A stretch of 61,143 nt of DNA, counting the filler, from Hausera hauseri (taxonomy: Eukaryota): NCBI GenBank assembly GCA_046269625.1. It is 12 parts of 12 records of this genome, joined end to end, with 100 filler letters (N's around TTAATTAATTAA, not from the genome) between each part and the next. Parts side by side here need not be neighbours in the genome. Positions count along the whole stretch, not along the records: positions 53,938 to 61,143 come from JBJURY010030781.1; 11 more parts are not named here. One strand, 5' to 3'. A model generated the notes under the pieces. It did not search any database and was not told the origin of the DNA. It was given only the letters and a program-made list of their open reading frames with translations. Position 1 is the first letter of the stretch. Every line of letters begins with the position of its first letter. A program made the translations under genes and the position numbers. This document shows positions 4,388 to 61,143 of this stretch, in pieces.

Positions 4388-4487
4388 NNNNNNNNNNNNN
4401 NNNNNNNNNNNNNNNNNNNNNNNNNNNNNNNTTAATTAATTAANNNNNNNNNNNNNNNNNNNNNNNNNNNNNNNNNNNNNNNNNNNN
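4388..4487. other. Artificial contig-joining linker (N44-TTAATTAATTAA-N44)
   Basis: The same six-frame-stop linker recurs at 9554, 13890, 18539, 25235, 29409, 35222, 40042, 44812, 49579 and 53838. Segments on either side are not physically linked. Confidence 0.97.
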
Positions 4488-10760: not shown

Positions 10761-10785
10761 AATATCACGAAATACTTGCGAAAAA

Positions 10786-10920
10786 TACTGATGAAGAAAC
10801 ATTGCATGCGGGGAACTCGGTCACCCCGAATTTTGGGATTTGCCACAGCGAGGCTGAAGTCTTGGTCGCCCACCCTATACCATTGAGTCGGACGGCACCG
10901 TTCGCTGACGCCCCACGACA
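10786..10920 (+). repeat. Family-A LTR right terminus (motif Y), ends ...CACGACA
   Basis: Near-identical to the reverse complement of 31110-31245. Followed by the family-A leader and gag. Confidence 0.8.
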
Positions 10921-20074: not shown

Positions 20075-20883
20075 TGAGAAGACGCACGAGAGAATCCCAA
20101 ATAGTCCTTTAAAATTGTGATAAGTTTAAAGGTGTAGAATTTATTTGGTCCAACGACCTTAAACTTATGCTATCAATACTCAACTTGGACCCTCTCCTTG
20201 TCCCAAGTTGGATTTATTTAGTTACAGTATTCGGCAGCCTGTGGGTCTGCCGAAAGTTAGGAATGTTATTTATTTACTTTCTCTTAATGTGTGAGTTCGG
20301 TCGGGAGGTACACCGACGTTGCTCTCCCTTATTTAATGTAAATTAGACAACCGACCTGTATTAAAGGAAGGTATACCAAAAGAGGGATGCCCAAAATTTA
20401 CGTTATTTACGTCTATTGCAATACTATACCTTTTAATTATTTTATACTAAATCAATAAATCAAAACAAATGAAACTACCGGAATATTTAATAAAGTATTA
20501 AATCAAATAATCAATCAAAATATGATAAGAAAATATGAACAAAAGAAATAACAAAACATGACTTACAATTATCATATGTGAGATTCATGATGTATCAGAG
20601 ATCAGTCAAAAGGAAATTGTGTGAGTTGTACAAATAACGCCAGTATTTATAATAAAATTTTGTGTCACCATATGGAAGAAAAATTACAAAAAAATTTAAA
20701 ATGATTAAGGAATAAATCAAAAATAAATTTTTAAACATATGTCAATTATTGGAGAATCAAACATTTCATTTTCTCCACGCAATAAAATAAGCTTTTAAGC
20801 GTATGTCGATTATTGGAGAGTCGCTTTTAAGCACATGTCAATTATTGGATTTCATTTTCGAAATATGTCATTTATTCTGAACA
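20075..20883 (-). repeat. 3' LTR (~809 bp) of the integrase-FN3-exonuclease Gypsy element
   Basis: On the - strand the PPT AAGGAGGGAGAAGA is followed by TGTT at 20883. The LTR ends ...TCTCA at 20075, exactly where the mariner sequence resumes. TATA-like and AATAAA signals lie inside. Confidence 0.7.
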
Positions 20884-23800
20884 TCTTCTCCCTCCTTGGA
20901 TGATGCTGTCCGCAGCATCAAGGGGTAGGCTTCGATAATTCCATTTGAATCTTGATAATCGACGGATTTGATATGGAGTAGTCTTCCTTTCTTCTTAATT
21001 TGTCTCTTTAGGGTAACTGTTTCTGTTTTTGGGATTTTCTTTTTCTTTTTCGGAACTCTGGTTAGGTCAACGACGATTGATTCTGTGGAACTAGCTGCCG
21101 TTATTGGGTTTAGATTAATATAACAGTCTTTTATAGAAGTCAATGCTTGATCACCGGAAGATTGGGTGGATGTCGAGTGGGTGGCAATTGATCGGGTATC
21201 TGGAGATTCTTGTATTTCCATCGGAACTGGGAATTGTTCATTTTTGTATTCCGGAATAAAATTGTAAATTTTTAATATTGTTACTGCTTTCTCTTTTGTT
21301 CTTTGAGGATATATGTTACCATTGTACTGGGTAAAAATCTGTTTGGCCGTGTATGTTCCTTGAGGATTAATACTGTCATGGTATAACAATTCTCTAATTC
21401 CCAATAGATTGTTGTAATCATACCTGAAGGTAGTTGCAAGGGTGTGATAAACATCAATGCCTATGATTACTTTTCCAACGATCATTTTCCTTATGAAGGG
21501 TTCCTCGTGATACGAGTCCTTTTTCCCAATAATATGATCTTCTTTCAGTCCAGTTACGTGGCTGTTATAATTATCAATCTTTTCTCTAGGGCATAAAATT
21601 TCGTCCAAAACAATTCCGCCATCTAGATTCATCAAGGTTACTTCTACCGAAGTCATTTCAGTATTTCTGATAGGGGTGAATAGGTATATAGGATTTACGG
21701 CCATGATTAGCATCTCTTCTTTTAATATTATTGGTTTTCTTGTGAAAGATAGGCCTTGTTTTACGTCGATTTCTTTTGGTTTGGGAGTAGTGTATTTGGG
21801 AATTTCGTAATCCAAATGTGGTATTAGGTCTTTTTTTATAACTTCAAGGTAGATTATTGGGAACACTTCTTGACACGTTCGTATGGTAATTGTAGAATTG
21901 GCGTACAATCTAGGATCCAAACGAATTGTTACACGGGTTAAGACTTCCATCACGTCTGTAATTCCATTGGAGTGTGATTTGCTTTTTAATTGAATAGTCC
22001 CTTTTGCCACGGAGATATATATGGCATAAGTGCGTCCGGAAGTATCAATTAAATCGGAGAGGTTAATTGAACTCTGTCGTACTTTAATTATAAGGCTGCT
22101 CCTTTGCTGGACTGAATAACCTTTGAGATTGTTAGGGATAAAAACGGCTCTTCCATAGTAACAGTAGTCTTTGTTAGAGGTGGCCCATAAATTAGATAGG
22201 ATATGATTGTAAAATGAGTTGGGTCTTTCGGTCCTCTCTGCACCTTCTTGGACTAAAAATAAAAACATTAATGTTAGCCAAGCGGTTTTAGAAGAAGGAA
22301 TATTATCACGTTTTGATTGTTTGTTTTTTATATAGGTCGCTAGGAATTTTGCGGCCTGATTCTGGATTTTTATACAGAGACATACGGTTATGTCTTTTAA
22401 CGGTCGGGTCTGCCGCTCTTGATCGGTAAGTTTTTCAACTTGCCGTTGATTTTCTAAGAAGGGCGCGCTTATGTCTCGTAACGATACCTGGGAATCTTCC
22501 CTTAAAATTTTTAATTGCTCTAATATTTCCCTTGTTCTACTTTGTCGTCGCTTTATTTTAGAAAAGTAAATTACTAAAGGTAAAAGTATAGCTAGTAATA
22601 TTAAAAGGACACATAGTAAACTGATTATCCAAAGATGTTTATTCGAGGTTTGTTCTGGTTTCTGTGTAGTTGTCCTTGGTATAATCCTAGGAGTAGTTAT
22701 TGTCTGTTTTAAAGTCTTCTCTGTACGAAAAACTGTTCGTAACTTTTCTCCTTCGTCATCTAATTCTGTTATGACGACTTTATAATTTGTGTCAGTTTTT
22801 AGGAACATACACGCAGATGTCGGTTCTTCAGGAGTTAGAACTCCTTCACTAATCACTTTATGGTTAAGATGACATTCGAATTTTATGTTTGTATTCTTTA
22901 GGTCAGGCACTGTAATAACTAATGAATGACTTGTTGGTTGGATAATTATATCCAGTTCTTTAATATCCTTCTGGGATTCCATCATTGGAGTAGTTACTAC
23001 TGTTTGTAATGTGGTTGATGTACTTGGTTTTGTTACTGAGGCAGTTGTTTTTCTTGTTGAAGTAGGGGTTACCTTTATCGGAGATCTGACTATTATCTCT
23101 GGACCGTCTGCTGTTTTTGACCATGTATAGCCGTTATACGTGGTCCAGTAATATATCATATACTGTTTATCAAAAGCGATAGGACAACACATATATGGAT
23201 TTCGGTAATTCGGTTTACAATATGTGGTATTAGTGCCATCGGATATTTCATATTGGAATGTTACATACCTCGTGATTTGTACTTCTGGCTCTGCTGTTAT
23301 ACAAGGTCCATTTTTCATAATTTTCGAATAAAATGAGATAAGGAAGTATGGTCGATGGAAATAATGTGTAGTACCAGGGTATGAGAAATATGTTCTATAA
23401 CTCTGGTCGCTTTTTCCTGTTGCGTATTGAATCCTGTACGTTTCTCCGAATGAAAGTCCACAGCAATTATGTATCGAGTGATTATAATATAGATCACAAT
23501 TTTCCGGTGTCGCTTTTTCCACTATAGGTAATTTCGATATGAATATGTGTATATACTCGTCTATTGTTAAGTTCCGATTAGCCGTAATCTTTATACAAGG
23601 GTATTTTCCAACTTGTACGGCCTTGTAATTTACATCTAAGGACTGAGCTGACACGTTAGTCACTAAAATTAGCATCATAAGTGTTATCATTAGCGATGGA
23701 CTAAAGTTTTCATTTCTTATTTTTAACTCTATTGGTGCAGGCTTGCATCTATTCACATGAACTTTTATTGGGTTCATCTTACCTCTTTTATTTTTGTTTA

Positions 23801-25234
23801 AGTAGACGTTGGTTTCGTCTACTTTCTGAATCATGTATGGACCTTTATATGGTCTATCTAGTTTTGGTGTCTTTCCTTTCTTACTTAAGGGTGTGTGCAG
23901 CATGACTTTATCTCCAGGTTTGAAGTCATGTGGCTTAGCCTTTTCGTCGTAACGACTTTTATATTCTTTCTGACATATTTTTGTGTGTCGTGAGGCCAAA
24001 CTCCATACGTATCCTAATTTTTCCTCTAGTAATTCTTTATATTCCAAGTCTTTTAAATGAGATACAGGCGTTTTGAAGTCCAAATCGATCGGCATATGAG
24101 TATCTCTAAGATACATCAGATAGAAGGGAGTTTCTTTTGTTGCCGGGTGGATTGTGTTTCTAATAGCGAATAAGCATGGTTTGATATACTCATCCCAATC
24201 ATCCTGTCTTTCATTTACCATAGTGGCCAACATGTTGGTTAAGATTCCGTTAAATCTTTCCACTGTTCCATTCGTTTGAGGATGATACGGGGTAGTTTTT
24301 AGTTGTAGTATGTGGAATATTTTCGATATTTCTGCCATAACTTCTCCTGTGAAGTTTGGTGCTTGATCCGTCAATAGTTTGGTTGGTGCACCATAATTAA
24401 AAACGATTTCTTCGACGAAAGCTTGAGCGATGGTTTGGGCCTTTTGATCAGGTATTGGTATTACAACTGGCCATCTAGAAAATAGATCGACAAACACTAA
24501 CATGTATTTATTTCCATTAATCGTTAGAGGCAGTGGTCCCAAGATATCCATTGCTGAAAATTCCATAGGGGCTGGTGGACATTCTATTGGTTTGAGAGGG
24601 ACTCTGATTTTTGAACCGGTGTTCTTTCTAGTGGCACAGACTGGACAACTCTTACACCAGTCTTGAACATCTTTAGTCATAGTATACCAGTAGTATTTTC
24701 TTTTCAGTCTTCCTAATGTCCTCTTTACTGATTGATGTCCTCCCATCATACCATCGTGGTATTGCGTCAACAACAATTTAATATCTTCTTGAGGAACGAC
24801 AACAACTAATTTTCCTTTATAATTGTAGTGCAATATGTCATTTTTTGTCTCATAATTTTCAGCAAACTGTTTCAGGTGAGTGTAAAGATTGATATCACTC
24901 GGTACCGTTTTCCTTTTTAAATACTCCTTGATTTCTTTGATTTGTTCGTCATTTTGTTGTTTTCGTAGTAACGACTCTTCTTGTTCTGTGATACTCCATA
25001 TAGCTGCTATGACACCAGGTTTATCTGTAGATTCTTCTTCTGATTGACCTGTATCTTCTGGTATTCGTGACATGTAATCGGCGTTCGCATTTGCTTTCCC
25101 CATTTTATATTCAAATTTAAGATCATACGGTTGGAGTAACATAGCCCATTTCATTAATCGACTATTCGGGTTTTTGTGATTTTTCAGCCACTGTAATGGT
25201 TTGTGATCCGTATAAACAACGATGGGTTTGGTTT
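20868..25234 (-). CDS. Gypsy Pol C-terminus (RNase H end, integrase) fused in frame to a signal peptide, FN3-like repeats, Thr-rich stalk, TM helix and DEDDh-exonuclease-like domain
   Basis: The frame is open to the contig edge (YTDHKPL). Motifs in order: ANANADYMSR; HHCC (YHDGMMGGH...CKSC); DILGP, TDQAPNF, VERFN; GPY; SLMITLMMLILVTNVSA; CGLSFGETYRI/CPIAFDKQYMI/FLKTDTNYKV; LWIISLLCVLLILLAILLPLVIYF; VEVTLMNLDGGIVLDEILCPREKIDNYNSHVTGLKEDHI. Confidence 0.9.
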
Positions 25235-28269: not shown

Positions 28270-29408
28270 TTATACTATGACAATTCCGTTTTTCGTTATT
28301 TCAACCTCGGCATCAAATACACCGTAAATGTACATCATAGTAGATTGCTCCAACGCTTTAGCAAAGTGAACCTTCAATCTCAGGTTTCCTTGCTAAAGTA
28401 GTTGAGGCTGTTCAACGACATAATCCGGAGCCAGTAAAAAGGTGAAGAATGGATAGGTGGACTTAAACAAATCCATCGATATGCCATTGTTGATGTTTTT
28501 CGTTCATCAAACCCAAGTTGCGCACGATAGATTGCATATATGTGCAAACATAATCGCCGGTCTAGAAATCCTGCTTGTATGTCTCAACGAAATCCGCATT
28601 ACGATCCAGAGTGATGTAATTCACATTGCTGTGGGTAAACGTTTCCGAATCGGTGGTATAACTTCCCCTTTTGTTGAACAGTCGTTTGAAATGTAGCAAG
28701 CACAAATTTCGGCAATTGCATGTCGCCAAACAGTGCATCTTTGTACAACATAGTTAAACCTTTGGGTGTGGTGTAAAAGACGAGTTCTGTGCGTTGTATC
28801 GGGTAACAGGCATTTAGAGTTTCCAAACCCAATCGATGTTCCATGAGCACAGCTTGTTCTACCTTTAATCGACGTACGCATAATCGTGCCTCGGTAATTT
28901 TCAGTATGGGTTTGAGACTTGCAACGGTGGTTTTCAAACAAAAGACATTGTCGCTGCGCTTGAGCCGAATCATGGCTTTAACACCAGGCAGCAAGTATTT
29001 CGACTGATCCAAAAAGTCGAAGTACAGCAGCCGAAACATTGTAAGTGCTTTTGATTCAGCCACTCATGGCTTACGGTTTGCTGCTGTGTCGTCATATTCA
29101 ATGGTTTTCGTCAAATGAGTCGTTTTCGCCTCAACACTCTAATTTAGAGCCATTTTAATGAGTGCATTGATACAGTATAGACTGGTGTTGCCTTCGATTT
29201 GGCGCTGTTTAGAGTCAGTGAAGCCTCCTGGAACAGTGTAATGAAAAGGTAATTGGCCGGCGTGACAGTGTCTGTTGCAGTGAGAACCGTTGATGCATCC
29301 TTTTTAACAATGACTTTTACATAGAGTAGCCTATCGTTCAAATCCAGGTATTCATTGTCCGATGCCATAATGTTGAATTGAATGTCAATGTTATCGTCCG
29401 TCGAGACG
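28270..29408 (-). pseudogene. Polinton/adintovirus major capsid (double jelly-roll) protein, frameshifted
   Basis: EYLDLNDRLLYVK, PANYLFITLFQEASLTLN, QSKYLLPGVKAMIRLKRS, KITEARLCVRRLKV, ACYPIQRTE, QLPKFV, and C-terminal GNLRLKVHFAKALE...VFDAEVEI, typical of animal Polinton MCPs. Adjacent to the protease. Confidence 0.75.
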
Positions 29409-29508
29409 NNNNNNNNNNNNNNNNNNNNNNNNNNNNNNNNNNNNNNNNNNNNTTAATTAATTAANNNNNNNNNNNNNNNNNNNNNNNNNNNNNNNNNNNN
29501 NNNNNNNN

Positions 29509-31239: not shown

Positions 31240-32135
31240 CAGTCACTTTCGGATATGATAGAACGAATTTTGTTCTTTTAATTTGTGCAGAATTTGTCAT
31301 TGAATTTTTTAGTACTTCTGGAATATTCTCTTCTTCTCGTTTGCGTTTTAATTCTACGTCTTTCAAAGTTCCCGCTTTTCGCGTTGTTCTCAAGTTTCAA
31401 ACTTTAATTCGCTCACTTTTTACCAATAGCCGACCCAAATGGCTGATAAACTTCGTTGGATGTGTCGTGGAATCCGCGTGGAATTGCCTGGTAAAATGGA
31501 ATTTCATCGCTGTAGTTTATACCAGGTTTCTTCTTGTTGTTTATCGGTTTTTCGATTATTCTCACTTCTGCATATTTACGTTTCTCCTGTACAGCCGCCA
31601 ATCTCCTTGCCATTATCAGCTGCCTTTCTTGTCCTTTACGTTTGGCCTCTTTTTCTTGGATATTTGTCAGCCTAGCACGTGCCCCATTCAACATATCAAT
31701 TTCATCTCTTGCCATGTCAATTGGATCAGGTTTGGCTGGTCCACTCTCTGGTCCGACGTCGGTATCATCTTGCCGTATATTATCTATGTTTGTAGTTCCT
31801 TCTGTATCAGCACGACTTTTATCAATCAATAAATTGTACTGCTGTACGCATTGTGATGCTATACGTCCAATTATATCTGATATAGTTCGCCATTGCATCG
31901 GCAAAACCTTTCCTAAATGTAACAGTTTTTTATTTTTATCTTGCGTCCTTTCGGTCTTTCTCACTGTCGGTGATAACCATTCGTACCATTTGGATTTGCA
32001 CTGCTGTGCTGATTTACGATTTAACAATGGGGTTACTCTGGCCCACTGATTTGTGTCGTATTTTATGATGGTCGATTTAAGAACTTCATCCTCAACATTT
32101 GTCTAAATACCACCCTTCCACAAACGACTCGTATT
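31240..32135 (-). pseudogene. CDC5L: Intronless CDC5L (Myb-repeat splicing factor) N-terminal fragment
   Basis: KGGI*TNVEDEVLK, QWARV, RKSAQQCKSKWYEWLSP, LLHLGKVLPMQWRTI, ESGPAKPDPIDM, ARARLTN, INYSDEIPF, PRGFHDTS, KRTKFVLSYPKVTD. Contains stops and frameshifts. Confidence 0.88.
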
Positions 32136-34712: not shown

Positions 34713-35221
34713 GTATAGACGAATCAAAAAGAAGGGGACGCGGAGATGTAGTGATGGATAAAAGGACACAGGAAAAAGTACGGAAATTTATGAAAACTGA
34801 AAATTTCCAGGAATTATTCTTCAACGGAATGGAGGGAAGTTGGAACGATAAGCAGATCTTCATGCTGGAAGAATTATACGTCGAACAGATGTCATACACG
34901 AAGTTTTTGCTGGACGACCAGGAATCAAATTAAAGATGCAAGACAGACGGGAAGATTGCTTATTGGACACAGGGCTACGGTAAATGTCATAAGCAAGAAG
35001 GTCGTGGATAATCTTGCAAACACACACATAGAGAAATCAGATATCACACTACCATGTGCGCACAATAGCCCCTTAGATTGTCTGGGCACACTCACAACAG
35101 ACGTAGAAATCAAGAGTCTAAAGAGACGCCTGACATTTCTGGTTGTGTCGGATTTACGGCCAGAAATAATAGGTGGAGTGGACCTGCAAAAGGCATTCGG
35201 AATAGAACTGGGATGGAAACG
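34713..35221 (+). mobile_element. Gypsy family-B gag/protease fragment (insertion target)
   Basis: Homologous to the reverse complement of 52300-52805 (CLLDTGLR protease-like site; LRPEIIGGVDLQKAFGIELGWK). Confidence 0.8.
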
Positions 35222-35593: not shown

Positions 35594-36160
35594 CTATTTG
35601 GACTTCTGGGTTCCATTTAAACATCGGTTTCGACATTTGGCCAAAAGCTCCCGTACTCCCTGGATTTTTTGTGTATGGTGGGTATAATTGTCCCTTAACG
35701 ATTGAGGTATTGAATTGTTTTTAATGTAAGACATTTCAGACCCTGTATCGATTAAGGCATAAACTTCCCAATCTTCGATAATAATTTTGGCGAAGGGCCT
35801 TTCTTCTATCACCGTTCCGAAGCAGTTTGATGCATCCATTGAGCGTTTTGCCGCCGATATCTTATGTCCGTTGATTCGGATTTCTGGGGAGGATACTATA
35901 TTCTCTGCCAGTTGCCTTAACTCTCCGTTTGGGTATAATTCATTGTTTTCGATGTTTAAGTTTTCTGCTTCGTGAGTACTGATTAATGATTTTCGATTGT
36001 TAGTATGTATTTCGGTAGTCTGGAAGGTTTTTAATCTTGGATTGTCCCAAACTGGTGATCTAGTTTCTATATTTCGAGGTTTTCTCGGGGAATACAACAT
36101 CCGGGGATTATCTACGGGCCGTTGGTAACACATTTTCCGTAGGATCCTGTAGCGTTTCAT
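35594..36160 (-). CDS. Retroviral-type aspartic protease region of a retroelement polyprotein
   Basis: RPFAKIIIEDWEVYALIDTGSEMSYI. Confidence 0.75.
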   Translation of the reverse strand: MKRYRILRKMCYQRPVDNPRMLYSPRKPRNIETRSPVWDNPRLKTFQTTEIHTNNRKSLISTHEAENLNIENNELYPNGELRQLAENIVSSPEIRINGHKISAAKRSMDASNCFGTVIEERPFAKIIIEDWEVYALIDTGSEMSYIKNNSIPQSLRDNYTHHTQKIQGVRELLAKCRNRCLNGTQKSK

Positions 36161-36177
36161 GCATTCATACGAGTCTT

Positions 36178-38320
36178 CTACATTAATTGTCCTTTTATAT
36201 ATTTCCGTCTGGATGAACTCATGGATCGTTTGTCACAGTCTTCGTAGACTGTAGCAGTCGGAGGTGACATAGTCAATGGTGCTTTAATGACAGAGTACAT
36301 CTTATGTTTGTTTATTCCTGAAAGTACTTCTCCTCCATTAGGCTCGTCATCACCTGAATTATTTCCTCGTATATTAGGTTTTGTAAGTTTCTGCTTTCGC
36401 AAGGATATAGGCCTTCCTTTACGTTTACGATTATAGTAACCGACATGGCGTTCTACGTCCGATTTCCATCTATTTTCTTCGTATGCCTTTAAGAATTTTC
36501 CAAAGGGCGTTCTGATTGCAGTCAGTATCTTACATGAAAATCCAGTCAATGTAAATATTTCATACCCATTTATTACTGCTAGGATGACTGCTTTAATCAT
36601 TTGTATCAGAAAATATATCGCTAAGAAACCGGATGCGGCTTGGCCAAAAATCAAAAATCTTCTCCAAATTTTGTAGAGTATTTCTGTTGTTACTCGCTGA
36701 TAATGGTTTACACCGAGTAACGATTCCCATTTGGCCTGATGTCGTGTATCGTCTACTACGGAAGCCATGGCTCGGTTTAATTCATGTGTTCTTTGTCGCG
36801 GAAAAGCAAGGAATTGTCTAAAGGCTTCGATTTCCTTAGGCCTGTATATGCCTTTTGACGAGGTGTCTTGAAATTCATAGTCCATAATTCCTTTCGCAAG
36901 GTTTATGCCTGTTAATTTATTTGGGGAGGCAGTAATGCCTCCATTTGGCAAACTAACCCCGTCTGTTTTACTACGTCTAAACATGGGCTCTCCTAAGCTT
37001 GCCTCACAATCCTTAAGGATAGTTGGTTGGGTTGCATTATCCAGTAACACTCTCGTCAATGGTGTAGCCAATCTGGGAATATTCTGATAGATGACAGGTA
37101 GTTCCTGAATGCAACGTTTTTCGTCCACGTTAATGGATACATCTCTCTTTTCGCATTTATAGGTCAGCAGTACCTCGCCCGTAACCCGACCGAAAATTCC
37201 CTCTGTTATAGGAATTATTGGAGAAGCCAATTCTGGGTTGGCGTATATAACGGACAGTTTCGTCCTCATGATTTCGGTATCTAATTTTCAGTCGTTAGTT
37301 ATCATTTTGTGATATAATTCAGCTATTCCGACTAGCCTCTTGTAGTAGAAGTAATCGTCTCTGTTTTTCAGATAATCCTCAATTCGGACATCCTGCGTCT
37401 CTAGTTTGTAAGTCTTTGCATTTATTTTCGTTTCTGCGACGAAAAATGCCTCATAGTTAGTAGCGAACATCACTACGTCACAACGAGAGACAATCTCTTT
37501 TTTGATAAATCTTAGTCCATGTTGATCCGAGATCAATATAGTGGATGTAGGATGTTTTGATACGTTCTTGCGTATCCTTGAATTGGTATCCGATTTATTT
37601 ATATAACGTTTTCCGGTAGTTTCATTAAACTTCAGTTCCTTAATTTTAATAAAATTACGGCTTCTTCCAGAAGGTGGTTCCCATATTATAACGGAATTTC
37701 TAAAAGCACAGGTTCCATCTTGTAAGTGGCACTTACAAGATTTTCAGTGTATAACTTAGTGACACTATGAAACATTACTTTCTGTGAATGCATCTCCGAT
37801 TCGTAGAAATCCACTACTACCACATTTGCTTCCAATCCTTTTCCAGTATCGTATTACGCTCCGTAACAATGTCCGTTATGCATGTCTAACCTTCCCGCCA
37901 CTATTTTGTATGCCCTAATTAAATGTCCTTGTTGAATTTCCAATTGCATATTGCCCAGTTGTACTCTTCCAGTTTCCTTAGCCTGTTTGCAGTGCTGGCG
38001 TTCTAGGTTTATTGGAATAAGAAGAGTGGTTGGTTTGATTATTGAGGAATGTCCGTATACTAAACCACAGTGAAAAATTCTACGAGATCGTCTCAGCATA
38101 CATTCCATCTCATCTAGCGATATCAGGTCTTGATGTTGATACAAGAAGTAATTTTTCTCTCTTGTTTCCAACTTGTGCGGTCTGGAATCCTCGCACACTT
38201 CCAGATCCATTAGGGAATGTCTTTGTCCTAGTTTAAACTTATCGCAGTGGTAGACGGTTACAGTGCCTATGTGCTTTATTAGCATCATTAAGGTGAGTAA
38301 GCTAATTAGCCAATTTGATT
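36178..38320 (-). pseudogene. Chuvirus-like (class III-type) envelope glycoprotein, frameshifted
   Basis: Signal WLISLLTLMMLIKHIG; VYHCD...SLMDLEVC; CMLRRSRRIFHCG; CKQAKETG; VAGRLDMHNGHCYG; GEVLLTYKC; CIQELPVIYQN...TPLTRVL; GIYRPKEIEAFRQFLAFP; TM FGQAASGFLAIYFLI...INGY. Confidence 0.8.
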
Positions 38321-39990
38321 TATTTTTCCGGCATCCAACATCCGCCGTTGTCAAATTACGTAACATTTTGTCGAATTTATTACCGGTCCGTCTGTCTTCT
38401 TCCTTGACAAACAGTCTTAACCAATTTACTTCACACGGCAGTCTTCTTGCCACTTTCCGTGCTAGGCTTATAGCCTTATTGATTTTATTCTCTCGATTGG
38501 GGTTTATTTTAATATCTAAGTTTAGTAATACTTTTCTCAATTCCTCATTGATGTTTTCTACCATAATCTTTTCGATTACCGATTCATCGGTTAAGTTACT
38601 TTTCGACAGCTTAAAACGTGAACTTCTCATCATTTTAGCTCCTTCGAAAATTATCTTTTCTTTGTCATCTAATACGTCACCTCGAAGGCTCGAATAATTT
38701 ACGATTCGTATTAAATTCTTCATTAGCTCGCTTAATTCCTCATTGTTTGTACTGTTAGTCGGAATCGATATCTGCCTCAGTTCTCTAATCATTTCCCCAT
38801 TATAGTCAACTTCTTCTCTCGTTTTCTTAGGCCTACCAACTGGGCGTTTCGGCCTTTGGCATTTAGTGGTTAGTTCACTGAATGGTACAAAATTTATATC
38901 GTATTGTTCCTTATCTTTATCTGTTTGTAAATACTCGAAATACATTGCAGCGTCTCGGAATCCCATGATTTGTCCTACGCATTGTCCCGTCTTGGCTTTA
39001 CGTCTGGCCTCTTCTTTTGTCTGTTTGTTAGCTATTATAACTACTATCCGATTTGTTTCGTCGGGGATAATCACGACATCTATTAATTGTTCTAGGTCGT
39101 CAAGTATTCTACCTCTAAAGTAAAACCTAGAATTTAACTCGCCTGTTCCTCCATTATTTAATAACCATTCTCTTACGTCTCTCACATAGAAATAAGTAGT
39201 TAATTTCCATTCTTTTTCAGCCATCCACTGGTATGATATTATTACTTTCATCGCTACCTCAGGTTTAGCCCTCAAGATTTTAGCGTATTTCTTTATCAAA
39301 AGCTTCGGCACCGTGCTATAAATCGTATTCTTACTAGATAAATTAGTTAATATCGGAATAAGTTGTCTTAACTTACTTTAAGTAATGTTTACATTAATTA
39401 GCTCGATTAAATCCGTTTCAATTTGCGCTGAATCCAGTATCATTCCACATTGAATCTCCTGTTCTGCGTGCATGTTTCTGTCTCATTTAGTTGTACTGGA
39501 GTCACGGGGTTTTCGGCAAGCATTGCGTCGAAGTATGCATCCCATACGGGTTCGTTTCCAGCATCTGGAAATCCATATTCTACTGTATTCGTTTTTTCAC
39601 GTTTTCCCTAATTTCTTTTAATCTTCGTTGTATTTCTTTCATCTGCGTGGTTTGGAAGCCTATTCCATTTCTACAGGCATACTGAATAATTATCAGTAAT
39701 TCGCCTAATTCATTAGAATTGATGAATCCCTTTTGGTGATAATCAGTTATTTCGATAATTTTATCTCTTTGCCATCTTTGTACGAATTCTTGCTTGTTTT
39801 TAATTTCTGATTTGGTAAAAGCATATTTGTTTCGGTAGCTTTCGAACTCTTTTGCTAGATCATCTAGTCTCGTTGCTCTTTGTTTTGTTCTGATGCACGT
39901 TTCTTCTACTTGCTGTAATTTGGGAATCAATTGCCTCATCTTTTTGTCATTAATTTCCACCATTTCTACCAATAAGTAGGCGGGATCCAT
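38321..39990 (-). CDS. N-terminal polyprotein region with ubiquitin-like segment and AT-hook
   Basis: VRDVREWL...SRFYFRGRILDDLEQLIDV resembles the Ubl motif RLIFxGKxLxD; RPVGRPKK is an AT-hook. Same ORF (37854-39311) as the start of the glycoprotein. A helical ORF lies upstream at 39580-39990. Confidence 0.5.
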
Positions 39991-49678: not shown

Positions 49679-50247
49679 TGAGATACCACACTACGATGTG
49701 CGAATAATAGCCCCTTAGATTGCCTGGACACATTGACAATAAAGTAGAAATCAAGGAACTTAGGAGACGCGTAACATTCCTGGTAGTGTCGGAATTACGC
49801 CCAGAAATAATAGGTGGTGTCACCTGCAAAAGGCATTTGGAATAGAATTGGGATAGAAACGCACGGACACGGAAACATTACAACAAGACATATGCAGCCT
49901 GGAAGCAAAATTCGGCCTGAAGATGACTAACCAAGAACGAGTCAACAGGACGAAGAAAACTCTTCAGGTGAGTGACAACAAGGAGCTATTCATCATCGTA
50001 CAAAAATACCCAGAGGTATTCATGGCCGACAAGTAGAACATAGGGTGCACACCTCTCATCAAACACCGAATAGACAAGACAGAAGCGCCGATTAATATTA
50101 AACCTCATAGGCAAGCGGTAAACCTAGAGAAGAAAATCGACCAAACCATCCAAAACCTGTAGATAAACGACATTATCAAGCCATGTAACTCAGCATGGAA
50201 TATACCAATGATGTGCGAATGGAAGAAAGTCAAGAACGATGTGAGAA
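49679..50247 (+). mobile_element. Gypsy family-B protease/RT-start fragment
   Basis: Homologous to the reverse complement of ~51920-52490. Confidence 0.8.
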
Positions 50248-50340
50248 CCTATTCGGATGTATAAGAGCTGATGAATTTCTCAAGTTTATGGCCCATTTTA
50301 TTAAACACTCAAATGCATCGAAAGATGTGCCAACTTTCTT

Positions 50341-50445
50341 TGTGGTGCCCACCGCGGCTGGTGCCCTTTGGCCCATTTTGACTGGGTTGGGCCGGGCGTT
50401 CCTTTATCGCCGCGTCGGATTCATAGTTTGGTCAGATTCTCTACC
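50341..50445 (+). repeat. Family-A LTR motif X, third copy
   Basis: TGTGGTGCCCACCGCGGCTGGTGCCCTTTGGCCCATTT...GGCCGGGCG...TCGCCGCGTCGG. Confidence 0.85.
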
Positions 50446-50581
50446 TCTAGAGTTTTACCGGTAGATTAAAAGTCAGAAGACCAGTGGAATTCATAAATAT
50501 CAATGACAGTGCCACAAAGATGCAGAGTGTTTATATCCATTCAAATTTCCACAACAATTTAACGAAAAACCGAGTTTAATT

Positions 50582-50900
50582 AAGGAAATTATTCCCATTA
50601 ACACAGGTTAAGCTGGAGCAAAATTATCCAATGCAGTGTGGAACTATTTCATATCGAATATGGAGTACAAACCAAAGGAACTCTGGACGAACGTTTAAGA
50701 GGTGACGACAGTTATACCTGTAAAGCATTCTGCAGGAAGTCCCGATGAAGAATTACTTCCCGAGAACAATTTCTATTGATTTGGAACCAACCGTTATTGA
50801 TGAAGTTAGAACAAGAAACTACCGAAACTTATGATGCCCAGATCAACATATATTTAATTTTGAAGAAGCTCCAAGAACATTTTACATTAAACGAATGGCT
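50582..50900 (+). pseudogene. Alpha-tubulin N-terminal fragment (LTR cargo)
   Basis: KEIIPINTG*AGAKLSNAVW/ELFHIEYGVQ and FPRTISIDLEPTVIDEVRTRNYRNL; DLEPTVIDEVRT is alpha-tubulin-specific. Not in the ORF track because of stops and frameshifts. Confidence 0.85.
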
Positions 50901-51046
50901 AAGAACAGTTGCAGTTTTGACAACGAACTCAGGGCGTTTGACAAGTACTTTATAGTCAGAATAATCAAATGTGTCTGTATCGTTTCAATTTGTTGGCTGC
51001 GTGCGCATCCACACCATCCACATCATCGCCCAGCCGGGGTTATACA

Positions 51047-53837
51047 GTTCCTTCCGAGTTATACAGTATCCTTTTTCATGGTTGTTCATTGCGTGTGATC
51101 CATACGCAATCACTCTCTCGCGCCCCAAACTATCCTTCTGTGATAGTACCGCTCCAATTGTGTCGAAGCTTGCGTCCGTATCGAGGATAAATTCTCTGTT
51201 GAAGTCAGGGAAACCTAGTATTGGCGGTGTGGCTAAGGCTCTTTTCATTGACTCGAAAGCCTTGTTACATTGCTCGGTCCATATTAGTTTCTTGTTATTC
51301 AATCCGCATAGTTGCTCCAATATCTTGGCTTTTGCTGCGTAACCTTGGATAAATCTTCTGTAATGGTTGCAGATCCCTAAGAAGCTTCTCAAATTCTTGA
51401 CACATTTTAGTTTCTCAAAGGACTTTATTGCTTCCAGTTTTGCTGGGTCTGTCTGTATCCCCTTGTCATTCACTATATGCCCTAAAAATTTTAATCCTTT
51501 CTTGAGGATGTGACATTTCTCGGGTTTTACTGTGAGATCTGCTTCCCTGATCTGCTGCAATACCTTTTATAGTATTCTATAATGCACTTCAAGAGTCTTG
51601 GAGAATATTAGTATATAACTAGATATACCACTGTTTGTTCAATGTTTTCTAGTACTTTATTCATTAGTTTGTTGAAGGCACCCGGAGCTGCTGCTATACC
51701 GAATGGCATCCTGTTGAAACAGAACTGCCATAATTTGGCTGAAAACGTCGTCTTTAATTTGGAGTCTTCCTCTACCTTGACTTGATAGTATGCATTCCCT
51801 AGGTCGATTGAAGTGAAAAACGTGGTCCCGTATAACCTGTCCAATATCTCTACCACGTTAGGCATGGGCAAGGCCTCCCGTTCTGTTATAAGATTCAGCT
51901 GTCTGAAGTCCAGGAATATTCTGACATCGTTCTTGTCTTTCTTCCGTACGCATATCATTGGTGTATTCCATGCTGAGTTACATGGCTTGATAATGTTGTT
52001 TTCCCATAGGTTTTGTATGGTCTTGTCGATCTTTCCTCTAGGTTTACTGGTTGCCTGTGAGGTTTGATATTATCGGCACTCTTGTCGTGTCTATTCGGTG
52101 TTTGATGAGAGATGTGCACCCTATGTCCCACTTGTCGGCCACGAATAATTATGGATATTTCTGTATAACATTGAGTAGCTCTTTGTTGTCACTGATCTGA
52201 AGAGCTTCCTTCGCCCTGTTGACTCGTTCTTGTTTTGTCACCTTACGACCGAACTTGGCTTCCTGGTTGCATATATCTTGCTATATCTTCCGTTTCCAAG
52301 CATTTCCATCCCAGTTCTATTCCGAACGCCTTTTGCAGGTCCACACCACCTATTATTTCTGGGCATAATTCCGACACTACCAGTAATGTTACACGTTTCC
52401 TTAGACCCTTGATTTCTACATCTGTTGTCAGTGTGCCCAGGCAATCTAAGAGGCTATTTTTCGCACATCGTAGTGTGGAATCTGATTTCTCTATATGTGT
52501 GTTTACATGTTTATCCACTGTCTTTTGCTCATGACGTTTACCCTGACCCCGTGTCCGACAAGCAATCATCCCATCTATCTTGTATCTTTAATTTGATTCC
52601 TGGTCGTCCATTAAACTTCTTCTATGATACCTGTTCGACATACAATTCTTCGAGCGTAAAGATCTGCGTATCGCTCCCACTTTCCTCCATTCCATTGAAG
52701 AACACTTACTGGAAATTTTCCGTTTTCATAAATTTCCGTACTTTTCCTGTGTCCTTTTATCCATTACTATATCTCCGTGTCCCCTTCTACTTGATCCGTC
52801 TATACTGTTTGATATACTACTACTATTATACATAACGATATTTTGGGAGACTGAATCTATTGTAGTGTTCCGATTTGCTCCATTTCTATCCCCCGTTTTC
52901 TGTACAGATTATCCCGAACCTTCTTTTCGCTTTGCATATATCCTACCCTGGTTGTCTTTTCCCCTCAAGCCTGGTGTAGCACTCCTTTTCAGCATGTCCC
53001 CTATTGTGACATCTCGCACAGCTAAGGTTTGTACAATATCGTCTGATGTGCCCTAGCTGACCACATCCGTAGCATCTTATTGGTTTTCTTTCGGGACACT
53101 GCCTGCTTATGTATCCTTGTTTTCCGCATCCAAAGCATTTAATTGGTCTCCATGTAGTGCAAGTTTTGCTCGTATGTCGTTCTTTCTGGCATGTCCAACA
53201 CATTAATTTGCTAATTTGGTGGTCTAATTGGCGTCATGTTGATTCCCTGAACTGGTTTCCTGATATTCTGTGCTGCCACTTCCTGGTAGCTTCTTCTACC
53301 GGACCCGGATACTCTTTGACCGTGTTAACTTCTGTCTTAATCTTTACTTCGTGTGTCTTCCGTATTTTCACATTTATGGTTTCCGCGTCTCGTTTGTAAC
53401 TGAGGCAAATTTCTCTTCTCATCTCTCTGTTTTTACGACATTGGAACAATAATTCCTCTTTTAAAACCTAGCGTAAAAGATTGTGCTTCATGACTTTATC
53501 TAGCAGTTTCTATATTTCTTCGAAGTAAGCCTCCGGTTCCGCTCCATTCATTCTGTACTCAAGCGCTTCTTTTAGATCTTCACACAGCGTTGAGGTCGGG
53601 CGCAATCCTTCCGTAGTCGGTTTAGGTATCCAGTTATCTTCGCATCTACTGCCTCGTATCTTTGTTGTTCTTCTTCATCCAAGAGGCATTCAACCATGAT
53701 TTCCCGTTTTGCTGCCGGGATGTTTATATATTTAAAAAAGTTTTCACATCCTTTAATGAACTTCTCCACGTCGTCGCCTTTCCTGAAATGGTTTGGTAAC
53801 AATTGATTCGCAAAAATGTCCACTGTGGAGTAAGTCG
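51047..53837 (-). mobile_element. Gypsy family-B element: gag with four CCHC knuckles, protease, RT, RNase H
   Basis: CWTCQKERHTSKTC/CFGCGKQGYISRQC/CYGCGQLGHIRRYC/CARCHNRGHAEKEC; LSDTG; DFRQLN, IDLGNAYYQ, RMPFG; LRSFLG, FILDTDAS, YCITRKEL. Confidence 0.9.
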
Positions 53838-53937: not shown

Positions 53938-56900
53938 AGAAAAGAAAGGCACGTCTCTTAAGCTTACCAGGACAGGGAGAGGACCTTATGAAGTTACCAA
54001 TATTACGCCGGCCACAGTCTATATAAATAAAAACGGCAAGGAAGAGGTTATATCGATTCAAAGAGTAGTTAAAATGGAGATAAAACCCGCCAAACGTTAC
54101 AATTTGCGCTCGAGCAAAGCGGGTAAAGAAAAGAAAACGTCGACGATAGTGACCAGACCAGTATCATACGTGCGGATAATCCTTGCCTTATCGTTAATCG
54201 CTTCATATGTGCCGAAGGCAAAATCGATGACCGAGACTGAAAAATTACAATATGCAGCAAGACGGAAGGATATCCAAAACTTACAATCACTTTGAGTACA
54301 CGATATGGATTGGAGAAAACCATGTGCATGGCTCGAAACAAGCGAACCTATTCAGAGCCACGTAAAATTTCAAATAATATTTATAACCGGGAACACGATG
54401 AGAACGTGCGATTTTCCGTACGGAGTTCATAGGAGATGTTGTAATTTGGATTTTGGACAAGCCCACGGATACAGTTTTTAGAGGTTTTATTCCTATCAAT
54501 TTGGAGCTCAAGCCTACATAACTACGGAACTCTCAGTAAGAATGCCCCAACGAAAGGACGCAAATCAGGCTAAGACAGACAAAACAATTCTAAGCACGGA
54601 TCCATTTAAGAGGCTTTTAGATTACAACATTGTTGGGATTCACAAGGACTTGAAGAACCAGTGTATTTGAATTGATACCAAAATCCAACTGCCAGGAGAC
54701 AGAGAGATTTCTGTCCAATTTATACCCCTGAACACTTCGATTCCTAAACCAGAGTATTGTTATTTGGCCAGACGACGATCTACTGTGTGCTGTGTACTGC
54801 AACTAGGACAGGAATATCAGTTGCAACTAGACTTGTATAATACGTACCCCGGAGAGCAAAGTATCTATTTACGGGTATATCGCCCAAAAACGGAATATGA
54901 AAGCTTCCGTTTCCAACCACTACGGGAAGACCGTCTACTGCTCCGAGTACAACTTTCACTACTACGATCGTCACTTCGGACGAAATGCCAGTAAGCATAC
55001 CGGTTAAAATTTTGGCAAAAAGCGATAGAATTCTATTTTACGCTGAAGAGACGTTAAATCGAGACGTCAAAATTGAATGTCGCACCCTGCACACCAACCA
55101 AGTTGTGATCCTGAAAAAGAATAGTCAAGAAGCTAAATGTAAGTCCTTACGGCCACAACATGTCTATATAATCCAAATTACTGCGAGGGGTAAGAACCCT
55201 AAAACTTTTACAGTACGAACTCTTGGCAATAAAGTTGAAGTAATGCCATATAAAGTGTCAGTACTCAAAATGTGTTCACCACGGAAAGTTCTATTGAGCC
55301 GAGTAATTTACCGATAATAACTATGTTCAGTTTGTCAATTTTCGTTCTTGTCATAATAGCAGCAATGATTTTTCTAGTTCCCAAAAATTGTAATAAACGC
55401 TGTAAAAATCAAAATGGAGATAAATGGGTAAACGGGCACCGAGACGGACCTTATGATAGCATAACCTGATAACTACAGATCGGGTTAACCTATCATCAGA
55501 CATAAAAAATGTTTTGTTTCAAAACGATGATCTGTCTTAGGATTACTCTTTATTTTTATTTCAGCAGAGTAAGTATGACCGAGAAGGCAAAGAATTCATC
55601 AGTCAGTCCCAATTTCGATATCGATAATTTCTTGCAGAAGCACGTCGCTGTCCTTAAACCATTATCCAAAAATCTATACCGACAAATTGGAGAAAATCTG
55701 AAAACCCAGGCTATATAGAGTTCAACCAAGAGAGTAAAATGCCAAATGGGCTAAAATTGGGTTTAGAAGAGAATCGACTGGTCTGATTATATGCTATGAG
55801 AAATCCCAAGGATGCACGGGCATATATTTTAAGAGACCTGATTCCATATGAGCCGACACATAAGCAATTGTACATACATGTCGCTGATGGAGAAATTCAA
55901 CACAGGATCGTAGGACATTCCTGGAGTACTCAGAAGGGACAGCAATGTAAGTTTAGCACTTACGAGCTATGTTGTTATAGCCTCATGAATTATGCTCTGG
56001 AATTCAGGATCGCGGACCTTCCGACCAAAATCATGATCGAAATGACGTGGCGAACAGAAGTAATGAAGCCGCCACCACCGTTACTATATGTACAGAAGCC
56101 ATCGGAGGATGAGATAGAGCAAAATGGAGAATCTTACAGATTAGTTCCAGATGGCCGAAATACTCGGATATTGGCCGTAAACTATTGAGAAAAAAATGAT
56201 AAATGGTACTTTCCGATTGAGGTTTCCATCAGAAATGCTAATCGAGAGGAAATCATAAACAAAATAATAGCACCGCGGGCCAGAATAAAAGATACTTTTC
56301 CCGACGTTACTGGAATCACGAGGTCACAGCTCAAAAAGGGAAAAGTTTTTTGGAAATCCAAGAAGATATAAGCCATTGCTTATATGGATACGTGGTTACC
56401 GGATTTCGAGTGCACAAAGCACTGGAACGACTAGGAATTAGGCACGAATACATAGCCGGAATTCGAGAATTGAGCCGGAACCCAGCAATAGTGAGCCAAG
56501 TGGAAAATACATTGATGCGGAAAAGAGGTTGTCTGCTTCCGTCATCATCCCGCGAATCGCAATTTAAGATGATGCTAGAAGCCATGAGTGGCGATCGATT
56601 CAAATTTCCTAAGCTAATGACAGCAAGTCAAAGGACCACATTTATAAAAGATATCTATAACTCGTTACGATGGATTCACGAATGGAAACCCAAAAGTCCC
56701 ATACAGAATGCGATATCTGACAACAACCCCAAGGCACTAATACAGAAATTCCAAAAAGGGTTTAGTAAATACCCTAGTTATCGACAGATCGAAACCCGTG
56801 AACATAACCGATTCCGAATAACAGTCTATAATAACCAAACGGAAGTTCCAAGCAATCAACAGAAACCATCAACCAGTAAAGCCCAAGCAGAAGTGACAAT

Positions 56901-57996
56901 AAGAGCTGATAATTTAGAGAAACCGAAGAGTCAAAAGACAAAGACCTCTTTTCTGGACTACATTAACAAAAAAGAAGCAAGACCAGCAAAGGCCCTGCGA
57001 CAGATAACCTAATCCCGGAGAAACCCATAAATGATTAGAAATGAGTATGGAATGGAAAAACTGGAAAGAAGATAGAGAAAACTAACTAGAAATTATTAAG
57101 CCTAAAACCCTTAAAACGGAAGTTAACGTTCTTCAAAAGAACTGGGAAGAAGATACCCCAATTATCGTCACATAATTTGGCCAAGTAAAAAAATATAAAC
57201 GAATCCTCTTTATGGCCGAATACTACAGCAAAAGAAAAATCAAAGTGGCTATATTTTACGTATTTATTGCTCCAAGACGAATAGTGAGTGGAAACGGATA
57301 TGCCAGAGAAGATTACACTATCGGCATATACCTAGCTCCAATATTTCAATCAAAAAGTGAAACTAGCAGATTAACAATTCCCGTGGATACCCAAGTGAGG
57401 ATTCAACTAAAAAGACAGTACAAGAAGACTGGAGTACCAGATTTGGACAAATAAGAAATAGTCGAATGGACCTTAGTCGCAGTATCCGACGACCCAAAAA
57501 AAAGCTTAATAGACCCAAATCAAAAGAGGTTGTACGGATACTTATATCAAGATAAGAAAGGACTGGTATTTGAGAGAATAGAAGTTGACGAAGACCTTGT
57601 GGACATTGATGCGGCCGAAAAAGAAGAATGTCCCGTTTGTGACGCGGATCTTTATCAAGGCTTCGTAGCAATAGATAACAAGGATTGCAGTCATAAATAC
57701 TGCCGATATTGCTTGGAAACGTGGACCCTGAAAATGGGAAAACAACCTGCCCAGTATGCCGAGCCGAAGCTACAAGGCTAAGGTACTACTCGAATGGAGA
57801 GAACAAGAAAATAGTAGAGATATTTCCCGAACAAACCACTACATCCTATCACATTAATCAACAATCACCATCAAACAAAACAGATTCGGAAGCGGACTTA
57901 CGCGAACGAATGGACCAATTACACCGATTTCCCGGCACCTCTACTGACGCAATGGGCACATCCGAGAGTGCCGTTCAGGGAGGAGAAATGTTGTAG
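53938..57996 (+). pseudogene. Second, diverged and frameshifted integrase-FN3-TM-exonuclease-RING polyprotein
   Basis: GPYEV integrase tail; signal VRIILALSLIASYV; CCVLQLGQEYQL and CKSLRPQHVYII; TM ITMFSLSIFVLVIIAAMIFLV; IEVSIRNANREEIINKIIAPRARIKDTFPDVTGIT...GIREL; RING CPVC...CSHKYCRYC...CPVC. Confidence 0.75.
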
Positions 57997-58779: not shown

Positions 58780-60520
58780 CCTCTAGGCAAATGTGTCAGC
58801 ATTTGCTTCAGATCATTATTTATGTGTGCTGGTAAGAGAGATATTTTTTTGCATCGTCCCAGTGCATTGTTGTTGCTAATGATTCATATTCACGTAAGAA
58901 ATCTTCTAATTATGATACTCATTTCTCGTAGGGTTGGAGGCAAGGAAGCGTTTGGTATTTCTCCTCCATGCGTCTTTCATTGTAATTTGGTTGTGCACAA
59001 GCGAAATTATTGTTGACGTCTCTTCTGACAAGCGGGTCAGTTTACTGTTCGACCAAACGGATCTCCGTTGTTCTGTTGTCGCACCATGTTCATTCTAACT
59101 GTATCGGATGTTTCGCAAGGTGTGGAACTCGGTTCTGTCGAAAGTTTGTTTGCCGGTCATATATCTTCTAATCGTTTGTTTAGCTGGTTCAGTAGTTCTT
59201 CTGGTCTTAAGTGTTCAAAACGTTCTATCAGTTGGTTTATATCTCTTAGCAAGATATCGATCTGGTATCTGGTAAGATTATGGTCTGCTTGTATCAATTC
59301 TTGTTCGTCCACTATGAATGCTACTCTATTTTGTATTTCGTTGATTCTCTGATTTATTTGTCTTTCATTGTCGTCTATTCGCAGCGATTTTCTAGTCAGT
59401 TCTTCATAAACTTGGATATTTTCTTGTTCCATGTTACGTATTCGTCTCGTACTGCCGTTTACTTTTTCAACGTGATTTGTTCTCTCTTCTAACTCGTCTA
59501 GTATTCTACTATTGTAATTACTTCTATTTAATTCTATTGCTATTGTATTTACTTCTACAAAACTGTCATCTAGATGAAGAGGAATCTTTTGTATTTCTTG
59601 AGTTAATTGTCGTATAGTACCGTTCATACAATTTTGCCTTATTCTTAGTTCATTCACATTTATTTGTTGTACTTCGTCTCGTGTTGTAGTTCTCACGACA
59701 TTGTAGTTCTTAATTAGCGGTTTTCTGTGTAAGTTGTCGGGAGTTAACGTTTTGGTATTGGCCTCGAGATGCCCGAAGATGGCCAATATCTCCTTGAGTC
59801 CAGTGGTGCTGGACTACGATGGGGCTAATTGAACTGATTAAGGGTTGGTTGTTTGTTGTTATCGATGTTTGTAATCCTTCTTGGGTATATGCTGTACTTA
59901 ATGCGTCTGAAATAGCAGCAGATCTAGCACTGCTACTGGAACTATTTTGGTCTGAGTTTATTTTATTTATTGCTGTTGGTCTATTTTGTGCTAAACGTCC
60001 TCTGGATTGAGTATTGTAGGGGCTTTCTTTTGTCATGATGATCAAAGGAGACTAAGGTAGTGTCCATTTTTATTGCCCATATATTGTACATGATGCGTCT
60101 TTTGGCAGTTCGCAAATATTAAACTTTAACAATGTTATATGTCCAGTAAGGCATGCTTTACAGTGGATTATATCTCACATGGTAAATGAATTATGTTTTG
60201 TTGATTCTGCTTCCATAATATACGCTTCCAAATCGTTCGCCTGATTGACGTACATTTTTCTTCTAATTCTCTCTTGCCCTTTTAGTGTTGCTATTAGGTA
60301 TTGAATATTTCAATAGTATTTGTTGTCCATTAGCTGTACTTGGTATATGTTGAAAACTATGATTGGTATTGATTCGTATTTAGGTTCTTCATTTGTTGTG
60401 ATAGCAACCATAGCCAAGTATTTGGAATATCCTAAGTTCACAATCTTATCGAGCAGTGTATTAGTATACAGTTTGTGCCATCTGTAAATCACGGTTGAAA
60501 ATTGGTCTTCTATGGTTATC
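58780..60520 (-). other. Degraded coiled-coil ORF region, probably the 5' ORF of another retroelement
   Basis: 209-aa heptad-rich ORF 59157-59786 with overlapping frameshifted ORFs. No diagnostic motif. Confidence 0.35.
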
Positions 60521-61143
60521 AACTAGGTTATCCATTTGTTGAGGTTAGCCAAGGTCATGCTGTTATTGTTGGCATTTACCAGATCTACAATCAGAATTCA
60601 ATTATTAGTTTGTCATGTAGTGCCTACATCTACATGAGTACTCGAGGTCGATAATATAAATATTTTGTCTTCTGGCATAGCTGAGAAAATAGATTTAACT
60701 ACATAAATCTGCTTTTTCCATGTTTTATTATATTGTGTTGAGAATACTGACATTCCGTCCACTGAATGTGTCACAACAAATGCATTATGATCTTTCAAGG
60801 AGCAAAGGTTTCCAGCTAGAAATCTGCTTTGCTCTGTACAAGGTTTCTCCATGACTTCACATTCCCCACACCATCCTTCTCCATGTGTTGCTAGACCTAA
60901 CTTCTTCCCCCAAGTGGATTCCACAACAAGGAACTTGTAATGCTGTAGCCAACTGTGTGTGTATGTATACCTTTTTTAACATAACAGTTTGAAGAATGTT
61001 TAAGATCTATGCATAAATCTGACTTCCTTACACAAAAAAACTGATCAATAAACTTGTTGTGCAATCAGTGACAACAGTTAGCAAAAGTGAAAGAAACATC
61101 AATATTAATAAATAATCAAATGTCAACAGTTTGCAGTATACAA

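Follow-up and report, generated by a model that had tools for sequence, protein, structure and literature searches.

An accessory cassette between the integrase and the presumptive 3' long terminal repeat in two diverged Ty3/gypsy elements of Hausera hauseri

What does a decayed retrotransposon encode between its integrase and its 3' end, and is that cargo shared with any other element? The question is raised by positions 53938-57996 of a 61,143-nucleotide window from Hausera hauseri (GCA_046269625.1), the window being the whole stretch of DNA analyzed. Its contigs are chained via N44-TTAATTAATTAA-N44 spacers, and it holds many remains of retrotransposons with long terminal repeats (LTRs) together with pieces of intron-bearing host genes. 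The element in question, here called B, opens at base 1 of the last contig (53938), and an intact partner, A, lies on a different contig. A preliminary description of this DNA had taken B to be a highly diverged second copy of A that keeps the same order of parts and adds a RING finger. The results demonstrate that a Ty3/gypsy lineage, most likely of an animal host, carries an accessory cassette between the integrase and the 3' LTR and that B is a dead member of it, known so far from one intact (A) and one dead (B) copy.

A Pfam scan of element A found RT_RNaseH, Integrase_H2C2, and rve in that order, and its best match in the PDB was Ty3-G Gag-Pol (E=4e-30). With an RNase H before a Ty3-type integrase, A is classified by sequence as a Ty3/gypsy LTR retrotransposon (Metaviridae). 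Its parts, obtained from the open reading frame (ORF), Pfam, and PDB comparisons, were as follows.

20871-25232 (read 25232-20871), minus strand: intact frame of 1454 codons
24797-23718, minus strand: integrase, preceded by an RNase H tail
23690-23646, minus strand: signal segment
23630-22698, minus strand: three FN3-like modules
22631-22557, minus strand: transmembrane helix
22253-22285, minus strand: splice-acceptor-like site just before the jelly-roll, with a CTAAC branch-point motif, a T tract, and a TAG ending at 22253
22226-21828, minus strand: jelly-roll
21716-21234, minus strand: dead DEDDh domain, followed by a basic tail
20876-20897, minus strand: polypurine tract (20897-20884), then TGTT as the presumptive LTR start

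The corresponding parts of B, along with those found in B only, were the following.

53939-54151, plus strand: C-terminal Ty3/gypsy integrase tail carrying a GPY/F-type module, 19/49 identical to the A tail (z=8.3; phmmer independent E value [iE] 6e-5)
54152-54229, plus strand: signal-peptide-like hydrophobic segment by hydropathy, in frame with the integrase tail and in the same place as 23690-23646 of A
54296-54520, plus strand: Cys-rich FN3-like module 1, in the integrase frame, with stops at 54293 and 54479
54590-54868, plus strand: Cys-rich FN3-like module 2, with a stop at 54668
54901-54985, plus strand: Ser/Thr/Pro-rich linker, matching A's linker in position
54988-55254, plus strand: FN3 module 3 (z=3.3 versus module 3 of A)
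55305-55385, plus strand: transmembrane helix (hydropathy 2.28), then a short basic tail
55540-55578, plus strand: splice-acceptor-like site, a T-rich tract with a CAG ending at 55564 and an ATG at 55576
55656-56110, plus strand: jelly-roll (double-stranded beta-helix) of AlkB-like fold without the metal triad, with a frame change at about 55710-55718 and a stop at 55784
56150-56679, plus strand: ISG20/REX4-type DEDDh domain, catalytically degenerate, with a stop at 56186 and a frame change at about 56332-56344
56716-56904, plus strand: possible double-stranded-RNA-binding motif, B only, kept as a lead only
57089-57610, plus strand: segment of about 170 codons before the RING, B only, with stops at 57173 and 57452
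57629-57759, plus strand: C3HC4 RING finger, B only, with a frame change between ligands 6 and 7
57977-57996, plus strand: polypurine tract at 57977-57988, then a TG at 57989 as the presumptive LTR start; the last frame stops at 57994-57996

Along the path homologous to A, B has accumulated 6 frame changes and 10 in-frame stops, so that it is not the single ORF of the preliminary description, and it is confirmed as the 3' half of a dead, decayed Ty3/gypsy LTR retrotransposon. Everything upstream of its integrase tail is cut off by the contig start. Because the integrase tail, the signal segment, and modules 1 and 2 lie in one frame, B once had A's in-frame fusion to Pol. The segment at 54152-54229 probably functioned as a signal peptide. 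At the end of each element stands a purine tract and then TGTT, and a reading frame crosses the tract in both, as had been proposed; the LTR that the frames were said to enter is presumptive, because both contigs begin inside pol and neither carries a 5' LTR. The gag-protease region is likewise in neither, and no second LTR copy was present in the window. The likeness seen between the ORF endings GGEML* and EGEDVQNK* dissolved, GGE and EGE being a mere translation of the purine tract.

We compared A with B by frameshift-tolerant protein-to-DNA alignment, using shuffled A segments as the null (n=30; n=12 for the long segment). As the preliminary description had stated, there was little nucleotide similarity, and blastn at E<0.01 matched no part of A to B. 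It had named an alignment ending at the integrase as the outcome that would speak against it, and the alignment instead ran on: the integrase tail gave z=8.3, the signal plus ectodomain 8.1, the exonuclease 8.4, the jelly-roll region 3.3, and all post-integrase sequence 8.8 (n=12). The reverse strand and the reversed protein, used as controls, stayed at background. The membrane helix with its linker (z=-0.8) and the C-terminal tail (z=0.0) failed to align. The aligned blocks were colinear past the integrase, upholding the claim of a common order, which runs from integrase through an in-frame signal peptide, three FN3-like modules, a transmembrane helix, and the jelly-roll to an ISG20-type DEDDh domain. 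When the A ectodomain was searched against the six-frame window, the non-self matches were three stretches, all in B and in order, each weak alone. A family profile built on 27 database relatives, with A left out, matched B at 55712-56113 (iE 4e-10), 56162-56335 (2e-7), and 56353-56679 (3e-9) and elsewhere in the window matched A only. The motifs AVN, EVS/T, PR..I...VTG, and GIREL were all found in both elements, and the AVN they have in common is the dead motif I of the exonuclease. Identity between A and B was about 22%, with 67/303 residues identical in the jelly-roll and exonuclease unit; since low identity gives no date, the age that had been assigned to the cassette is not derivable from identity alone.

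The jelly-roll and exonuclease unit belongs to a family lacking annotation, whose 23 longer relatives are predicted as stand-alone proteins, mostly keep an intact catalytic site, and show 15-26% identity in this unit. The idea of a conserved lineage feature was supported for this unit and not for the full cassette with its FN3-like modules and membrane helix, which was found in A and B only: of 34 database hits, 0/34 covered the ectodomain or the transmembrane helix. The exonuclease domain has a DnaQ-like fold. All five catalytic D-E-D-H-D residues are present in 16/27 relatives, while A keeps 1/5 and B reads A-V-N at motif I and G-F-R at motif II; the catalytic residues are thus shown to be lost in both elements. 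In the intact relatives motif III carries His, and 20/34 match RNase_T at E<=0.01, by which the domain is assigned to the DEDDh ISG20/REX4 type and not to the RNase D-like DEDDy type. The jelly-roll was modeled in A as a double-stranded beta-helix with AlkB-type N-terminal elements; the B jelly-roll takes its fold from that model, on the strength of the iE of 4e-10 given above. AlkB and other 2-oxoglutarate-Fe(II) dioxygenases are marked by an HxD...H metal triad and a C-terminal Arg pair. Only one conserved His was found here (19/22 rows; Ser in A), with no second His column and hence no metal triad.

A tree was built from rows for 23/35 relatives, each with at least 250 aligned residues. A and B sat on long branches, A joining P0003 (94/95, not starred) and B joining P0011 weakly, and a clade of A plus B was neither shown nor rejected (approximately unbiased test, p=0.24). 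Keeping the catalytic columns in the alignment makes a split between dead and intact members (74/68) partly circular. No relatives were present in 50,697 phage records, and 31 pattern hits in bacterial and archaeal genomes yielded none that was confirmed. A separate observation concerns P0003 and P0028, in which a Phe/Leu/Ile-rich stretch ending in Gln stands right before the Met ahead of the jelly-roll, the pattern that a read-through splice acceptor would give.

The ectodomain is built of repeats. Compared by 500 shuffles per pair, module 1 of B gave z=5.6 with module 1 of A and 6.7 with module 2 of B, and module 2 of B gave 6.7 and 5.9 with modules 1 and 2 of A. Modules 1 and 2 are mutually repeated (z 4.6-6.7), and their likeness to A's module 3, which was modeled as a seven-strand FN3 sandwich, was not significant. 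A Pfam "Dep-1 Fn3" match on A was taken as chance, since it falls inside the jelly-roll domain. Word-index searches gave 0/7999 full-length or fused candidates for A residues 511-1454 and 0/3267 for profile A1 against proteins of 1156-3300 residues, weak negatives because the same tool overlooked most known relatives; at near lengths it returned 2/7312, with no full-length or fused relative.

Does the cassette make one protein or two? A simple acceptor score, devised after the sites were seen, ranked 22253 first of 276 AG sites in A and 55564 first of 299 in B, both just before the jelly-roll. In B the membrane frame closes with two adjacent stops (55467-55472), a third follows 11 codons on, and the frame reopens with the ATG at 55576; three such stops exceed B's rate of decay (p ~0.015). 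Because of these stops, the acceptor-like sites in both elements, and the stand-alone relatives, the simplest reading is that a spliced message can yield the jelly-roll and exonuclease unit alone, with a tethered read-through form possible in A as well.

The 3' region that B has in addition, about 320 codons after the exonuclease, comprises the possible double-stranded-RNA-binding motif, the segment at 57089-57610, the RING, and a tail running over the purine tract into the presumptive LTR. For the RING, eight zinc ligands with the proper spacing were counted over two frames: six share one frame (57629-57730), and a second frame supplies the final CxxC (57748-57759). The first piece matched zf-RING_2 (E=5e-5) and zf-C3HC4_2 (8e-5) in Pfam, with a best score of 23.9 bits versus a curated cut-off of 27.3, and the HOIL-1 RING at E=9e-4. 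The added C3HC4 motif is thus real, though split by a frameshift and below the Pfam cut-off, and it is not terminal as had been described, since about 78 codons follow it. By Pfam it was absent from A and from all 34 relatives. The RING is the least secure part of the B cassette, and its E3-ligase activity, with the host manipulation earlier proposed through it, is putative. The match of 56716-56904 to dsrm was weak (E=0.027; 15.5 bits versus a cut-off of 23), spurious Pfam matches about as weak being frequent in the window scan; it had no PDB match, and 30/4068 window segments scored equally against RNase III. The segment at 57089-57610 matched nothing in Pfam or the PDB, and the idea that it is a MATH/TRAF domain found no support there and was dropped.

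We explain these results by a two-unit accessory cassette, and, its mechanism included, we put the probability of this explanation at about 0.5. Unit 1 has the anatomy of a type I membrane protein, with a signal, three FN3-like modules, an S/T linker, and a transmembrane helix. It would be translated in frame with Pol, probably be freed by signal peptidase, and most likely act as an adhesion or receptor-decoy protein at the cell surface. Unit 2, the AlkB-like jelly-roll fused to the ISG20-type DEDDh domain, would probably also be soluble, from a spliced message, and could be membrane tethered in A, where the frame is open from the transmembrane helix. Given the loss of catalytic residues from both enzyme folds, in A as in B, unit 2 is most likely a pseudo-enzyme that binds RNA ends and either shields the element RNA or occupies host RNA-surveillance factors, Maelstrom and EXD1 being named models for such binding (PMC5408684). 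A RING added in B's lineage would make this RNA-binding protein an E3 ligase for bound host factors.

Several results weigh against parts of this explanation. Modules 1 and 2 matched no Pfam FN3 family, and their single-sequence model was of low confidence (predicted local distance difference test, pLDDT, 22-50). Profile comparison of the jelly-roll with E. coli AlkB and the Pfam 2-oxoglutarate families gave no match, making the AlkB link structural only, and its structure matches in the Atlas were mostly cupins (TM 0.34-0.45). The family relatives may not be retrotransposon genes. The acceptor ranking came after the sites had been noticed, and A's 105-codon linker between membrane helix and jelly-roll is open while the other two frames there hold 13 and 5 stops, so that A is clearly able to make one polyprotein. 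In B a frame change and stops separate the exonuclease from the RING, which is present in one copy only.

The linker and the single 1454-codon frame of A bring up a rather unlikely alternative, a single membrane-anchored polyprotein, receptor-like with a cytoplasmic effector, that carries FN3 outside and the jelly-roll, the pseudo-nuclease, and B's RING inside, with the stops in B reflecting decay. The distance from membrane helix to jelly-roll is similar (about 105 codons in A and 95 in B), and in B both start in the same frame; against this, the top-ranked acceptor-like sites fall at the same junction in both elements, adjacent stops follow B's helix, the linker does not align, and all 34 relatives lack the ectodomain and helix. 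Genes after pol with a signal peptide and a transmembrane helix are usually filed as env, and unit 1 has the position, signal, sequons, and helix of one. In-frame or spliced env genes are, moreover, common in such elements (PMC6431247, PMC5408684). That the FN3 protein is an env substitute attaching particles to cells or spreading them between cells is nevertheless quite improbable: no viral fusion family matched A or B in a scan that did detect Monjiviricetes_fusion (PF24664, E 6e-34) in a different element, sequons number only 3 in 336 residues, and the modeled module is FN3. The protein is thus not predicted to be a fusogen, which is compatible with attachment lacking fusion.

Improbable as well is that B's RING region arrived late as a passenger and does nothing for the element, being either a piece captured from the host or what is left of another insertion. 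Its absence from A and the relatives, its one broken copy, and the unmatched segment before it fit a passenger, but it shares the strand and A-rich composition of the rest of B, its stops are no commoner than in the homologous parts, and its last frame crosses the purine tract exactly as in A. The two-unit cassette can also be extended, in a version that we regard as unlikely, to an undescribed old animal Metaviridae clade with a counter-defense kit like that of large viruses. Its FN3 protein would be a cytokine-receptor-like decoy and its spliced AlkB-fold/ISG20-fold protein an RNA binder; the B branch would have gained a double-stranded-RNA-binding motif and a RING ubiquitinating host RNA-silencing factors; and the stand-alone relatives would be the clade's third genes, with the active nuclease ancestral.

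Under the two-unit explanation, a non-fusogenic FN3 array stands where env is expected, is kept in two elements sharing only about one-fifth of their residues, and is accompanied by a derivative of the ISG20 enzyme family, which hosts use against viruses. Few element-encoded proteins are known to act on host cells or RNA surveillance, and if the cassette is a lineage trait, its proteins are testable candidates for such action by a retrotransposon. A previously unannotated protein family also gains a fold assignment and a possible home.

Other features of the window were noted. The fusion glycoprotein that a different element encodes at 36178-39377 (minus strand) is of chuvirus/Monjiviricetes type (Pfam E 6e-34 and 5e-11) and is extended at its N terminus by 350 residues, and an aspartyl protease frame follows at 35594-36232; by eye, the extension holds what we take to be a ubiquitin-like stretch and an AT-hook-like motif, with no Pfam support. 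Adjoining B's LTR on the opposite strand (58900-61143, minus), there is a Cys-rich frame in decay as well as a coiled-coil frame of 218 codons; neither has a Pfam match at E<=0.01, and they may be env- and gag-like portions of one more element. A decayed gag-protease-RT-RNase H element occupies 49879-53837 on the minus strand of a contig separate from that of B; it has an inverted partial copy (49879-50092 versus 52072-52285) and a relative at 34774-35219. A long 15-base tandem array at 4400-9600 has frames of His/Met/Lys-rich or Val/Phe/His/Gly-rich pentapeptide repeats. Pieces of host genes interrupted by stops or frameshifts, many of which look pseudogenic, lie at 15800-17700 (minus), 31413-32102 (minus), and 10377-10886 (plus), presumably an intron-bearing CDK12/13-like kinase, a CDC5-like Myb protein, and an SNF2/CHD-like piece. 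We assume that fragments at 28599-29452 (minus), which had no Pfam match, resemble a Polinton/adintovirus-type capsid protein and that a transposase in the window is mariner-like. Together with the gypsy elements and the chuvirus-type glycoprotein, this transposase makes an animal the most likely host. There were 0 Rfam matches within the window.

How does the cassette compare with known systems? Accessory domains of such elements have been reviewed (PMC6338049), and accessory ORFs occur separately or as polyprotein subdomains (PMC6431247). The Juno and Vesta LTR retrotransposons of bdelloid rotifers, which carry a DEDDy exonuclease or GDSL ORF3 (Rodriguez 2017, PMC5408684), are like A and B in being gypsy type with a DEDD 3'-5' exonuclease 3' of pol, and their ORF3s are described as typically spliced units. 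Their exonuclease is of the RNase D-like DEDDy type, keeps its catalytic residues, and, in the passages of PMC5408684 drawn on here, has no transmembrane helix, whereas A and B have a dead ISG20/REX4-type DEDDh domain fused to a jelly-roll, with an FN3-transmembrane protein in frame with Pol ahead of it. A Phalaenopsis Ty3/gypsy element with an AlkB m6A demethylase ORF likewise has AlkB-fold cargo; it is a recent capture in a plant, an active and sequence-recognizable enzyme (PMC9289625), whereas in these animal elements the AlkB fold is unrecognizable by sequence, lacks the metal triad, and is fused to DEDDh. In planarians, the giant gypsy element Burro/GYPSM1 has accessory domains built in frame into its polyprotein, among them a RING-type motif and domains related to ubiquitin (PMC6431247). 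Its extras (BIR, BCL2, MATH, ankyrin, and F-type env) lie between gag and protease, unlike the post-integrase cargo of A and B, and the portion of that source used here names no FN3 or DEDDh. Errantiviruses and other env-carrying Ty3/gypsy elements resemble A and B in having a signal-ectodomain-transmembrane protein 3' of pol, but the env of those elements is a fusogen of F or gB type (PMC13524379), a type that A and B did not match; the words exonuclease, fibronectin, RING, and DEDD are absent from the main text of that source. In searches of the open full-text literature, we found no gypsy element with FN3 modules or a fusion of AlkB and ISG20 folds. Compared to ISG20, ISG20L2, and REX4, the A and B domains have lost their catalytic residues, carry an N-terminal jelly-roll partner, and are encoded by mobile elements. 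Taken together, DEDDy, AlkB, and RING cargo each has a known precedent in other gypsy elements.
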